Positions 21,369 to 53,240 of a DNA stretch of 64,000 nucleotides are shown here, one piece after another; position 1 is the first letter of the stretch, and each line of letters begins with the position of its first letter. A model generated the notes under the pieces. The model was not told where the DNA came from. It worked only from the letters and a program-made list of their open reading frames with translations, and did no database searches. Both the position numbers and the translations under genes were made by a program. Source of the stretch: a virus (Duplodnaviria; Caudoviricetes); the IMG/VR virus record IMGVR_UViG_3300043447_000395, positions 1-64,000 of that record. One strand, given 5' to 3'.

Positions 21369-22031
21369 TTATAATAATTTTTTACAGTCCATTAAAGAAT
21401 ATAGGTAATGTGCAAAATCTAAATGTCCTTGAAAGGAGAAGTGACCGTCATCTATTTTACGATTAGTGTGGTCTTTGATTTTGGTAAATGTGTTATATAT
21501 TTTACTGTCATCCTCTAATGACCATTTGTAAAAAAACCGTAATTTTTTATCTTTATTAAGTCTATCACCAATAAATTTAAACCTCTTTTTGTGTCTTTCT
21601 TTGTAAAATTTATGATTCGAAAAATGATATTGAAAATTAATCACTGCCTCAATTTTTTCTTTTTCTTGACTATCGTTACCATCTCCAACGATTTTCATCA
21701 CATTTTCATATGTTGATAATACATTACGGGTATTGTCGTCAAATGGAACTTCAATCCTACCATGTAATGTCATGTTTACAATTACAACATCCCCTTCGTT
21801 TATTTCATCATATTTTTCAATTATGGAATCAAAAATATAATCATTAGACGCTCCATTCCTACCAAAATTTTTAACCTCGTAATTTAATAATTTACCTAAA
21901 TGATTTGGCCAAATATCGTCACCTTCTTTTTTGTATGGTAGATATTCCTCTTTAGTGTCCGACACACATAATTCATTACATCCGTGTCCGAATGTCATTG
22001 AATCTCCAAATGTCCATAATATGTTTTTCAT
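21369..22031 (-). CDS. SGNH/GDSL-fold protein
   Basis: FGDSMTFG, GASND, DGHFSFQGH; ends KKLL. Confidence 0.8.
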   Translation of the reverse strand: MKNILWTFGDSMTFGHGCNELCVSDTKEEYLPYKKEGDDIWPNHLGKLLNYEVKNFGRNGASNDYIFDSIIEKYDEINEGDVVIVNMTLHGRIEVPFDDNTRNVLSTYENVMKIVGDGNDSQEKEKIEAVINFQYHFSNHKFYKERHKKRFKFIGDRLNKDKKLRFFYKWSLEDDSKIYNTFTKIKDHTNRKIDDGHFSFQGHLDFAHYLYSLMDCKKLL

Positions 22032-22588
22032 ATTAAACTTCTATCAAATTTTTTAAGTATATATCTGTTTTTAATATGAAGTATTTTATTAAATAAATCA
22101 ATATTAAATGTAATGTTTAAATAATTACACATATCGATAATTTCTTGTGATGGGTAATCTAAAAATATATCCTCATAATAGTAAACGCGTTTATTTAGTG
22201 TAATTTCATCAAATATTAAATTCCACTCATTAATTTTCGTCTCCGCAATGAAATTACTCTGTTCTTTACTATTCATCAATCTATGAAAATCGGAAAATGA
22301 TTTTTTAATATTTTCGATGTTTTTTCTTTTTATGTAAATAACTTTATCAAATTCTTGTACAATCCTAAACGAATGTTCAGTTAAAGTTTCACCATTTTTT
22401 AATATTATGGGATCATGTTCTTCATCGGTTAACACTGACTTTACAATACATTCATCTCCCCATTCAACATCAGTCACTCTTTTAAATGGTTCATATTTTA
22501 CAACATAATTTTTAGGTAAGGACTCGACCAAAAAATCAAATAGACTACTTGTTCCACATCTTGGTAAACCAAAAATTAAAATTTTCAT
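22028..22588 (-). CDS. sulfotransferase-like P-loop protein
   Basis: GLPRCGTSSL (PAPS 5'-PSB-like), EPF, YYEDI; ends RSLI. Confidence 0.7.
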   Translation of the reverse strand: MKILIFGLPRCGTSSLFDFLVESLPKNYVVKYEPFKRVTDVEWGDECIVKSVLTDEEHDPIILKNGETLTEHSFRIVQEFDKVIYIKRKNIENIKKSFSDFHRLMNSKEQSNFIAETKINEWNLIFDEITLNKRVYYYEDIFLDYPSQEIIDMCNYLNITFNIDLFNKILHIKNRYILKKFDRSLI

Positions 22589-23286
22589 TATATTAAATTT
22601 CTGTTTTTTATAAAATTACCAATTATGTTTTTTTCAGCAATATGACATACCCCGTTATAGTTTAAATTTTCAAATGACGGATTTTCTTCATACAGGTAAT
22701 TTATATTATCAAAATATAAATTTAAATATTGTTGATTTAATGTAATTGGTGGAACATCATTATATCTTTTAATAAAGAAATCGTAATTTAAATCAATAAT
22801 GTTCAATACTTCAGAATACGTTTTATTAATGGTCGTATAATCATTAGTTGCAATTATGCAGGTATTGTTTAACTCATTAAACTCTAATGGTGTGTTTGAG
22901 TATCGTTTATATATTTCGGTAAAATTATCTGTTTGAATTTTAGTTAATGGGTGTTTGTAACCAAGATTTAATCTATCCCCATTTATAATATTTTTTAACT
23001 TACTAAAATCGTTAACCACTAAATCATTATCTAAATGTATAAATGGAAAATCAATCTCCGATAAAACTTTCAATTTTGGATATGACCACAACGTATTTTG
23101 TTTGTATCTCTCATCTGTTTGAAATTCAACCCAATTGTATTTCAAACCAGTGTTCTTAAAATAATCGTCGTCGGAATATATGAACGGAATTATGCTTTGG
23201 TCATTTAATTTTTCAATTGAATAACTCAAATAGATTTCAGTAACTTCTTTTAGTCTGATTGGTAAATATGTAAAAACTACGTCCAT
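22588..23286 (-). CDS. GT-A-like protein (DUF6734-like)
   Basis: WSYPKLKVL, PFIHLDNDL (DxD), LNQQYL; ends RNLI. Confidence 0.55.
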   Translation of the reverse strand: MDVVFTYLPIRLKEVTEIYLSYSIEKLNDQSIIPFIYSDDDYFKNTGLKYNWVEFQTDERYKQNTLWSYPKLKVLSEIDFPFIHLDNDLVVNDFSKLKNIINGDRLNLGYKHPLTKIQTDNFTEIYKRYSNTPLEFNELNNTCIIATNDYTTINKTYSEVLNIIDLNYDFFIKRYNDVPPITLNQQYLNLYFDNINYLYEENPSFENLNYNGVCHIAEKNIIGNFIKNRNLI

Positions 23287-51863: not shown

Positions 51864-51881
51864 ATTTCTAATTTTTATATT

Positions 51882-53240
51882 TTATATTATTTTCGCTGGT
51901 CTTGCAAGTTTATTAAACTCATCACTTTTACTAATCTTATCTTCTTGAGTTTCGTAGATTTCGGCGTGATTACCGTTACCCGATTTATCGAAAACTTTAA
52001 AACTTGTTTTCTTTTTAAAATCGTACCACAAATAAAGATTCTCATCATCTTCAACACTACTATGGTAGACTTTCACATCCAATACATCACCATAAAACCA
52101 ACGATGATTATCATTGATACAATGTGGATTACCCGCACCAATAAAAATGTAACTATCAGAATAGTCGTATAGTTTGTATGTTATTTTCTTCTTCTTATAT
52201 AATACGTTATTTACAAACATAGAGAAATTTTTACCTTTCTTTATGACTTTTACTGTTATTGGTGTTGTTAAATCATATTGGTCATGTACAAAAATTTCAT
52301 TTTGAAAAACTTCACCGTTATCATTTATCTCACGCCATGTCCATTTTAAAAAATCTTGTCCGTCATAATTGAATATAAAAATACCCATTGAACCTTCTCT
52401 TGAAATCACACATGAATCTAAACCTTCTGAACTATTAGGTGCCATCGTGAATGTAGTTTCAAAAATGAAATCTTTTTTTAATAGTTCATAACTTTTGGTG
52501 TTAGTTTTACTATTAGTAAACCTATCAACTATGTATGCAACTTTTTCAGTGTTTGGTTCCGTCTTTCTTTTAACCTTAACTTCTTTTACTACTACGGTAG
52601 GTTTGGTTTCGTTTTTAAAAATTTCAGCGTCGATTTTGTTACCTGATTTATCAAATATTTTAGTCGCACTACTGTTTTTAAAATCAAACCACAAATACAA
52701 TGTGTTAATGTTTTCATCACAACTATCGTATATTTTAATATCATGAATTTCACCATTAAACCAACCATAGTGCCCTTCTGGATTGTTAGGATTTGAAACA
52801 CCGATAAACATAGACTTGTCAGAATAATCAAACAAATCAAATTTTATATGTTTAGTTTCATAGAATTCATTGTTCACATACAAATTGAATGACTTATCTT
52901 TTTTAATGACTTTTACATTTGTAGATTCAAATAAATCATATTTTTTATGTACAAAAATTTCGTTATAGATGTGATTCTTTTCATTATCAACTTCCCACCA
53001 CACCCATTTGATGAAATTCTCATCATTAAAATTATAAAGGTATATACCCATATTATACCCTTCTCTTGATATAATACAACTTTCTCCTTCATTTGGTTTG
53101 TTTGCAACTAAATTAAATGTTGATTCAAATATAAAGTCGTCGGTAGTTATCAAGTCGTAACTATCGTTATTTGAATCGTTTTCCATTACACGATTTATTA
53201 TGTATGCCTTTTTGTTTTTGAATATCATAGTTCTCCACAT
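51882..53240 (-). CDS. protein with two tandem LamG/ConA-like beta-sandwich domains
   Basis: internal duplication (DFIFE.TF, SC.ISREG, FIG..NP, WF.G...D.K.Y, LYLW.DFK, FDKSGN); ends PAKII. Confidence 0.65.
   Translation of the reverse strand: MWRTMIFKNKKAYIINRVMENDSNNDSYDLITTDDFIFESTFNLVANKPNEGESCIISREGYNMGIYLYNFNDENFIKWVWWEVDNEKNHIYNEIFVHKKYDLFESTNVKVIKKDKSFNLYVNNEFYETKHIKFDLFDYSDKSMFIGVSNPNNPEGHYGWFNGEIHDIKIYDSCDENINTLYLWFDFKNSSATKIFDKSGNKIDAEIFKNETKPTVVVKEVKVKRKTEPNTEKVAYIVDRFTNSKTNTKSYELLKKDFIFETTFTMAPNSSEGLDSCVISREGSMGIFIFNYDGQDFLKWTWREINDNGEVFQNEIFVHDQYDLTTPITVKVIKKGKNFSMFVNNVLYKKKKITYKLYDYSDSYIFIGAGNPHCINDNHRWFYGDVLDVKVYHSSVEDDENLYLWYDFKKKTSFKVFDKSGNGNHAEIYETQEDKISKSDEFNKLARPAKII

Follow-up and report, generated by a model that had tools for sequence, protein, structure and literature searches.

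We analyzed the first 64 kb (the window) of the IMG/VR virus record IMGVR_UViG_3300043447_000395. The record is 104,089 bp long, with a CheckV completeness of 31%, and the window (32.5% G+C) encodes baseplate-wedge and collagen-like tail-fiber proteins, which identify it as part of a tailed phage. Between positions 21369 and 53240, fifteen predicted proteins with different folds end in a similar short peptide, which we will call the tail or the tag. Nine of the tails are in a run of ten consecutive minus-strand genes (28286 down to 21369), and these fit the pattern K/N-[S/T/N/K]-[L/I/F]-[I/L/V]; the single exception ends INRK. The other six tails are at 34–53 kb. A sequence-only reading had listed these C-termini before, and an independent table of open reading frames (ORFs) reproduced all 15 of them, including the 9 of 10 in the run. 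The genes, with the positions of their tails, are:

28431–29921, minus strand: heads the tagged run; predicted ATP-grasp-like amidoligase, Hint domain, and Cys/Trp-rich tail (from an AlphaFold2 model of a relative and structural matches)
27753–28286, minus strand: 177-aa protein whose N-terminus resembles the neighboring 2-oxoglutarate (2OG) oxygenase; no Pfam match; TKSLL at 27756–27770
27161–27742, minus strand: 2OG-Fe(II) oxygenase of the P4H type (Pfam PF13640, E = 2e-13); KKTLL at 27164–27178
26844–27161, minus strand: 105-aa Cys-rich zinc-ribbon-like protein with six invariant Cys; KKTFI at 26847–26861
26158–26823, minus strand: SGNH/GDSL-like hydrolase (weak Pfam GDSL matches); KPTLI at 26161–26175
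25424–26155, minus strand: P-loop protein, weakly sulfotransferase-like; NKTLV at 25427–25441
24565–25359, minus strand: SGNH-like protein, the untagged member of the run; ends INRK
23286–24536, minus strand: 416-aa protein of no family (an Atlas lead to GT10 only); KKSLI at 23289–23303
22588–23286, minus strand: DUF6734-like protein; NRNLI at 22591–22605
22028–22588, minus strand: P-loop (PRCGTS) protein; DRSLI at 22031–22045
21369–22031, minus strand: SGNH-like hydrolase, the final gene of the run; CKKLL at 21372–21386
34265–34990, minus strand: DUF6071/SGNH-like protein (Pfam, E = 6e-9); KNNII at 34268–34282
36896–37516, plus strand: 2OG-Fe(II) oxygenase (Pfam); LKNMI at 37499–37513
38675–41365, plus strand: protein of about 900 aa, no family; Pro-rich linker, then KRNLI at 41348–41362
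42264–43016, plus strand: 2OG-Fe(II) oxygenase (Pfam), a doubtful member of the tagged set; HTKLI at 42999–43013
45163–46155, plus strand: 330-aa SGNH-like protein; charged linker, then TNKLI at 46138–46152, within the next gene
51882–53240, minus strand: LamG (Laminin_G_3) protein (Pfam, E = 3e-10); PAKII at 51885–51899

The folds named in the sequence-only reading fared unevenly. Pfam agrees on the 2OG oxygenases, while the sulfotransferase assignment is weak (25424–26155 matches a heparan-sulfate 2-O-sulfotransferase in PDB with E = 0.7) and the GT-like fold is an Atlas lead at 0.83. What that reading said about the gene junctions was correct: the distance to the next start codon ranges from overlap to 54 nt, and TNKLI is encoded, with a CTC codon, within the next gene, which starts at 46133.

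The 416-aa protein is found on 35 viral contigs at 62–83% identity. The relatives are uncultured aquatic phages with genomes of 287–333 kb (jumbo phages) and T4-type replication genes (a clamp-loader subunit and a family-B polymerase). We refer to the genome under study (the 104-kb fragment) as G000 and to a complete relative (287,455 bp, 391 ORFs) as G002. Orthologs were compared across the 35 contigs with the 416-aa protein and across 78 further loci centered on the ligase-Hint gene (the homologs of 28431–29921). Among GenBank phages, we found no match to the operon (megablast) or to the 416-aa protein, a 619-aa ORF (87195–89054), or the ligase (tblastn). A scan of genome contigs for relatives found none, an NCBIfam search with ten proteins of the island gave no match, and no tRNA or tmRNA genes were found.

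Conservation of the individual tails

In the run from 28286 to 21369, most of the tails are conserved. The oxygenase at 27161–27742 ends in K-K-T-L-[LIVM] in 118 of 120 orthologs (58–100% identity), and the 416-aa protein has the tag in 34 of 36 relatives at 62–83% identity, with Ser encoded by tct, tca, or tcc and Leu by tta, ttg, ctc, or cta. Two hydrophobic residues (Phi-Phi) end the DUF6734-like protein in 31/31 relatives and the P-loop (PRCGTS) protein in 41/41 members of its family. Relatives of the SGNH/GDSL-like hydrolase end in KKLI, KKIL, or KKII, and orthologs of the P-loop protein at 25424–26155 (35–46% identity) end in K-[TS]-[LI]-I. For the final gene of the run, orthologs retain KK[LI][LI] without any coupled gene downstream. 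The 177-aa protein has a 29%-identical homolog in G002 that is outside the operon and lacks the tag. The family of the untagged SGNH-like protein mainly lacks the tail (for example YLPK or IKKT), and one member ends PKLI.

The tags of the second island (34–53 kb) are less secure than those of the run. The family of the oxygenase with LKNMI has a tag-like end in 20/20 homologs at 36–41% identity. For four other tails, conservation is known from one close ortholog each, in the related genome G006: KNNII is identical there, KRNLI corresponds to IKRNLI, TNKLI to TNNLI, and PAKII to PAKIV (59% identity). PAKII also resembles the P-x-K-Phi end of the ligase family itself. HTKLI (42264–43016) is not conserved, as its only ortholog ends RNKNI.

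The NDP-sugar enzymes, APS kinase (CysC), carbamoyltransferase, and radical SAM enzymes of this genome lack the tag, as the sequence-only reading had stated. We also noticed a 711-aa protein (15231–17366, minus strand), upstream of a Ser/Thr-rich fiber gene, whose relatives have variable hydrophobic ends (NLLLF, NCLIF, KKLI, EKFL, EKLF). It is neither clearly tagged nor clearly untagged.

The tail is more common than expected by chance

A strict form of the tail, [KR][STN]L[LIV] at the C-terminus, occurs in 7 of 115 ORFs, compared to 0.04 expected from its internal frequency, and all seven ORFs are within 21369–53240. A looser pattern is matched by 13 ORFs, while 1,000 codon-resampling trials gave 1.7–2.6 on average and a maximum of 7–9; both patterns were defined with the data already in view, which makes the exact P values soft, and we put more weight on the comparative data from orthologs, which do not depend on the choice of pattern. 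Each trial replaced a gene's final six codons by random draws, either out of the 30 codons at the end of that gene or out of a pool of terminal codons from all genes. The observed counts are far above what composition and redrawn codons give.

Protein-level or DNA-level selection

The tail could have no function in the protein. It could be a by-product of AT-rich codons, of translational coupling or start-codon context, or of an element that marks boundaries in the DNA, for instance a promoter or a cassette-shuffling recombination junction. The genome is AT-rich (32% G+C), and many of the junctions are TAATG or ATGA overlaps.

Orthologs at 35–88% identity retain the tail despite synonymous changes in its codons. 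Across orthologs, the tail's Leu is encoded by tta, cta, ttg, ctg, ctt, or ctc, its Ser by tct, tca, tcc, tcg, or agt, and its Ile by ata, att, or atc, and swaps between Leu and Ile are seen. Across 470 distinct tagged genes, codon usage in the tail is the same as in the gene bodies, except for the ATA codon of Ile. For instance, the frequencies in tail and body are.25 and.22 for Ser AGT,.31 and.34 for Ser TCA (all six Ser codons are equally spread),.87 and.86 for Lys AAA, and.70 and.63 for Leu TTA. For Ile, the last two positions use ATA more often (.72–.76) than gene bodies do (.48). This excess, which is a point in favor of a by-product, is a small nucleotide-level preference beside the stop/start junction.

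Retention of the tail does not depend on the distance to the next gene. The tail is kept in 203 of 204 cases where the genes overlap, in 84/91 with a gap of 1–15 nt, in 29/30 with 16–60 nt, in 15/15 with 61–150 nt, and in 18/21 without a downstream gene. Furthermore, of the 43 places in the genome that match a degenerate DNA version of the tail, only 7 are gene ends, and families that are never tagged occupy the same operons with the same types of junctions.

Because the codons change, because codon usage is like that of gene bodies, and because retention is independent of the gap, we reject each of these causes, be it AT bias, translational coupling, or a boundary element in the DNA, and we give almost no credence to a tail without a function in the protein. 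At the level of sequence comparison, these data show that selection acts on the protein, not on the DNA. The sequence-only reading had preferred selection on the protein over AT-rich coupling, and this preference is well supported by the codons of the orthologs, codon usage, the gap classes, and the appended extension that we describe below.

An appended module with a short consensus

We compared the oxygenase to 1.8 billion cluster representatives (clustered at 50% identity). About 45 of the nearest clusters (35–61% identity) end in the tag, while more remote P4H-type oxygenases end about 12 residues earlier, at ..VxWVxGPxF[RK]. In the Cys-rich family (95–105 aa) and the 416-aa family, the linker before the tail varies in both length (with insertions and deletions) and sequence, and there are short paralogs without the tail extension. 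By these comparisons, the tail is an appended extension, usually behind a variable linker.

To describe the tagged families, we clustered 838 ORFs from this genome and the 35 loci, and we considered a family of at least 3 members to be tagged if at least 80% of them had a Phi-Phi end. The split was all-or-none: 21 families were tagged and the others never were. Weighted by family, position −4 is K (.47) or N (.25), position −3 is S (.33), K (.22), T (.14), or N (.14), position −2 is L (.67) or I (.24), and position −1 is I (.72) or L (.21). In short, the consensus is (K/N)-(S/T/K/N)-(L/I)-(I/L)-COOH. The tagged families include P4H-type 2OG oxygenases, SGNH/GDSL proteins, DUF6071, DUF6734, LamG proteins, P-loop proteins (only weakly sulfotransferase-like), the small Cys-rich protein, and several families that we could not assign. 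In the relatives, an FkbM methyltransferase and a radical SAM enzyme are tagged as well. The tagged proteins lack signal peptides, and their catalytic motifs are directly at the start.

The comparisons show that the tail must occupy a free C-terminus. We noticed one case in which it does not: the contigs L029 (10001–11293) and L030 (10001–11248) are near-identical, but the stop codon of the gene for the 416-aa protein has been lost in L029, where translation runs on past the tag (..KQSLI-YWMLYSLPSLSDSKM). Either the sequence contains an error here, or this is a natural mutation or variant that masks the tag.

Tagged genes surround a ligase-Hint-peptide gene

In the complete relative G002, the tags are concentrated in one operon (172.8–184.3 kb), where 14 of 15 consecutive genes are tagged. 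The untagged fifteenth gene is the homolog of the window's ligase-Hint gene. Across the 78 ligase-centered loci, 53% of same-strand ORFs (707/1337) are tagged, versus 5% of ORFs on the opposite strand (9/193), and 9–15 tagged ORFs are present in every one of the 24 loci whose 10-kb flanks are complete. The association holds across three subfamilies of the ligase, which are just 28–34% identical to each other, with the same motif throughout. These results show that the tag marks the genes of one type of operon, built around a protein with an ATP-grasp ligase, a Hint domain, and a six-Cys peptide.

We modeled this protein with AlphaFold2, using the copy from a relative (L030:6444–7922), which gave a pLDDT of 85 from an alignment of 138 sequences; the window's own copy, with 18 sequences, gave a pLDDT of 44. 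In the model from the relative, residues 285–468 have a Hint/intein/BIL fold (Z of about 16, Foldseek probability 1.0), and H-N is invariant at the C-terminal junction of the Hint domain. Residues 1–280 match YgiC (Z = 9.5 over 204 residues), a GCS-like protein (8.8), GspS (8.5), glutathione synthetases (6.3–8.4), and trypanothione synthetase (7.1), with lower matches to RimK (5.5), TTLLs (5.1–5.7), and ArgX (4.9). About 15 ATP-grasp ligases fill nearly all of the match rows, along with three unrelated chains at Z of 5.1–5.4. The invariant residues of this domain include D9, E21/N23, K129, K172, and R227. Neither Pfam nor PDB sequence searches with the N-terminal domain found an ATP-grasp match, so the assignment rests on the fold only. 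As modeled, residues 1–280 are an ATP-grasp amidoligase of the GspS/YgiC/glutathione-synthetase type. Downstream of the Hint domain is a low-confidence stretch that is rich in Trp and Tyr and has six Cys, and 90 of 120 members of the family end in K-[LIV].

The window's copy (28431–29921) is the most divergent ligase-Hint protein, with 27–31% identity to the others. It has Asp at the N-terminal junction of the Hint domain, where most relatives have Ser; it has 8 Cys; and it ends ..YPLC instead of the usual K-[LIV]. In about 15% of ligase-Hint proteins (L004:7369–9114, L027:7634–9328, and P0276–P0281, for example), a Peptidase_S74 domain, which is an intramolecular chaperone of endosialidases and tail fibers, follows the Cys-rich stretch. 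Its presence suggests that these proteins cleave themselves a second time, which would leave a peptide with a terminal Lys.

Next to the ligase-Hint gene in the window, at 29949–31017 on the minus strand, there are genes for APS kinase, a 128-aa HxGH nucleotidyltransferase-like protein, and a DUF2061 membrane protein. The trio is kept together in G002 (90776–91838, 52–87% identity), though it is distant from the tagged operon there. These genes may be a module that supplies PAPS (3'-phosphoadenosine 5'-phosphosulfate) to the P-loop, sulfotransferase-like enzymes.

The presence of a ligase raises another explanation, in which the tail serves as its covalent substrate. The sequence-only reading had named a ligase substrate as an alternative, and the context lends this some support, since the operon's one untagged gene encodes a protein with an ATP-grasp amidoligase fold. 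That enzyme would activate the carboxylate of the tail and join it to an amine, which might come from an amino acid (RimK and TTL use these) or else be a Lys or the N-terminus of the released Cys-rich peptide. Alternatively, a lactam would be closed onto the conserved Lys at −4. GspS, YgiC, glutathione synthetase, RimK, TTLL, and ArgX act on carboxylates at or near the C-termini of peptides, and the ligase's fold is of the GspS/YgiC/glutathione-synthetase type, with weaker matches to the others. The many invariant polar residues in the ligase are consistent with catalysis, a free end is always needed, and Lys is the most conserved polar position of the tail. On the other hand, ligation of more than 14 different enzymes is without precedent, and a more obvious substrate for the ligase is its own peptide, to which it is fused in cis. 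Overall, we consider a covalent substrate to be rather unlikely, with a small but real chance of being right.

The search for a reader

If the tail is bound by another protein, then the reader might be recognizable in these genomes. We compared the tails with class I PDZ ligands ([S/T]-x-Phi-COOH). More than 95% of the tails end in I, L, or V. At PDZ place −2 (counting the last residue as 0), S or T is present in only about 47–55% of tails, with K or N as much of the rest. The residue before the last is strongly conserved, which is atypical of PDZ ligands. We did not find the PDZ_2 model in G000–G005, or the PDZ_6 and PDZ models in G000, the complete G002, or G006, and the controls were positive in both cases. 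A PDZ protein of the host might read the tail, but bacterial PDZ proteases are mostly periplasmic. Neither Hsp70 nor a Clp-type unfoldase was found in G002, where the sole AAA_2 match is a MoxR/CobS-like AAA_5 ATPase with a CbbQ_C end (104722–105960, which is L044:4722–5960).

We considered several other partners. The sliding clamp is an unlikely reader because the family-B polymerase of G002 (42572–45079) ends ..AEKFFSF, which is not the tag; the clamp-loader subunit of G002 ends ..GINSIL. In 13 loci (such as L030:14308–14739, minus strand), the end of the tagged operon faces a convergent Hsp20/alpha-crystallin gene, which has an I-x-I/V tail of its own and is absent from the 104-kb G000 fragment. 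The I-x-I tail of small heat shock proteins requires hydrophobic residues at i and i+2, while the tag has adjacent L-I, so we rejected this comparison. The untagged neighbors in the operons (Hsp20, UvdE, peptide deformylase, and the DUF2061 membrane protein) do not point to a reader of the tail. Finally, the tail does not co-vary with the ligase: the motif is identical in all three ligase subfamilies, which neither supports nor excludes the ligase as the reader.

The reader could instead belong to the host, with a ClpX-type unfoldase as the main candidate from outside. The tail might be a degron or an unfoldase handle for a host AAA+ protein (of the ClpX class, as for RRKKAI of MuA, or else FtsH or ClpA, which recognize non-polar ends), which would time the removal or the remodeling of the enzymes. 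Like the MuA signal (PMC8138137, Table 1), the tail has a free end at which basic residues precede small or hydrophobic ones. K occupies −4 in 47–59% of tails and is enriched from −5 to −8, followed by L-I-COOH. A conserved host reader would fit with a motif that is invariant over divergent phages, and no phage-encoded PDZ, ABC exporter, Hsp70, or Clp-type ATPase was found in the relatives we searched. But a degron leaves unexplained why the tail is restricted to the enzymes of one type of operon. Also, the phages' other proteins do not avoid Phi-Phi ends (28 observed versus 23 expected in G002, and 8 versus 4.5 in G000), which argues against a general degron of hydrophobic ends in the host. 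We think that a degron is unlikely.

A signal for export or packaging (similar to type I secretion, or for loading into a capsid or compartment) or a weak membrane-association motif seems very unlikely to us. The tail is basic and hydrophobic, and C-terminal secretion motifs of four residues and encapsulin cargo peptides do exist. But there is no ABC_tran match above the cut-off in G000, G002, or G006, the tagged proteins have no signal peptides, and two hydrophobic residues beside a free carboxylate would be a poor membrane anchor. Neither the encapsulin consensus (..GSL[KR]..) nor that of type I secretion (D-Phi-Phi-Phi) resembles the tail; because the tail is basic, not acidic, and because there is no ABC exporter, we rejected the type I motif.

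A probable address or docking motif

We think that the tail is probably a short linear address or docking motif that is read by one partner. It is appended to about 20 unrelated families of modifying enzymes in a single clade of T4-like jumbo phages, and besides this genome more than a hundred related contigs have it. That unrelated folds share an invariant end of four residues suggests a common recognition handle, as a single reader would impose. The sequence-only reading had proposed a sorting or docking signal; a shared recognition signal fits with the all-or-none families and the single type of operon, although no PDZ reader turned up in the phages that we searched and we saw no sign of a virion compartment. 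If docking is the function, one partner would recognize the tails of interchangeable modifying enzymes in the cytoplasm and so gather the enzymes at a single place or substrate, most plausibly the hub's Cys-rich peptide or something built on it.

The best candidate for the reader is the ATP-grasp domain of the hub itself, because it is in the only untagged member of the operon and shares its fold with enzymes that bind short peptides by the carboxylate end. We put this forward tentatively, as less likely than not. The ATP-grasp domain would then be a docking site that brings the enzymes to the peptide that is fused to it. A fuller version, also more doubtful than not, is that the ATP-grasp domain of a self-cleaving precursor reads the free K-x-L-I before the Hint domain releases the six-Cys peptide. 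About 30 interchangeable hydroxylases, P-loop transferases, methyltransferases, esterases, and radical SAM enzymes would be recruited to the six-Cys peptide of the precursor. This would be an inverted form of leader recognition in peptides that are made on ribosomes and modified after translation (RiPPs), with a four-residue tag in place of a recognition domain on each enzyme.

Several observations count against a docking motif or against the hub as its reader. First, all of the loci are from one phage clade, so the co-location of the tag and the ligase represents few independent events and may reflect only the shared descent of the operon. Second, the many invariant polar residues of the ligase suggest a working enzyme, not a mere docking module. 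Third, the ligase family usually ends in K-[LIV] itself, so all fifteen proteins of the operon could share a reader that is elsewhere. Fourth, six of the tags in G000 are 6–25 kb from the ligase, in a sugar/radical-SAM island (34265–53240), while the counterpart of this island in G002 (232–253 kb) is mostly untagged. The use of the tag outside the core operon thus varies between phages.

Significance and comparison with known systems

The tag on this set of enzymes is real and not ordinary, and its function is what we infer from the comparisons above. It links many of the "tailoring" genes to the ligase-Hint-peptide gene, which suggests that the island matures a peptide rather than, or besides, a glycan. 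If the four-residue tail is sufficient to route or dock unrelated enzymes, then it is a sequence rule for finding members of the system in metagenomes, including enzymes without a recognizable family. It would also point to an as yet unknown hub in jumbo phages of an abundant aquatic clade, and it would be a very small tag for co-localizing enzymes in bacteria. Address tags that proteins share at their C-termini are known from eukaryotic organelles, Fe-S cluster delivery, and encapsulins; we found no report of one for a set of phage enzymes, and our search of the literature found no description of this C-terminal tag or of a ligase-Hint fusion.

Many enzymes use short terminal peptides to dock on a hub. 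Examples are the clamp-binding motif QL[SD]LF, the C-terminal tail of the T4/RB69 polymerase, and EEVD of Hsp70/Hsp90, which is bound by TPR domains. As in the phage operons, many proteins share one short terminal peptide, which in those systems plugs into a single pocket of the hub. Unlike the clamp-binding tails, the tag is not at the end of this clade's polymerase, and the tagged enzymes are not DNA enzymes.

In RiPP pathways with a RiPP recognition element (RRE), and in the carrier pathways of LysW/LysX and ArgX, several tailoring enzymes act on one peptide or carrier, with an ATP-grasp ligase in the cluster, as we propose here. In those pathways, the recognition element is on the substrate and each enzyme has a domain that reads it; here the enzymes would carry the element and there would be a single reader.

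The ClpX recognition signal of MuA is RRKKAI at the C-terminus (PMC8138137). It shares with the tail the basic residues, the small or hydrophobic residues that follow, and the free C-terminus, but it is on one protein, while the tag is on a whole operon. Encapsulin cargo peptides are also C-terminal peptides on unrelated enzymes, and their reader is an HK97-fold shell protein that is related to phage capsids. However, their consensus is longer and different (..[LIV]xxGSL[KR]..), and we noticed no gene for a second, encapsulin-like shell, though we made no systematic search for one.

The other comparison is with targeting signals. The peroxisomal targeting signal PTS1 is -SKL-COOH and is read by Pex5. 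The targeting complex of cytosolic iron-sulfur cluster assembly (CIA) reads a C-terminal tripeptide of its clients, [LIM]-[DES]-[WF]-COO- (Marquez et al., PMC10245660). The phage tag differs from both in its sequence (K-[ST]-L-I) and in belonging to a phage in the bacterial cytoplasm. The likeness is that a motif of 3–4 residues at a free end, often behind a linker, is found on unrelated folds, and in the PTS1 and CIA systems such motifs are sufficient to recruit clients to one machine. The C-terminal tripeptide of CIA clients (PMC10245660) is the closest published concept to the tag.

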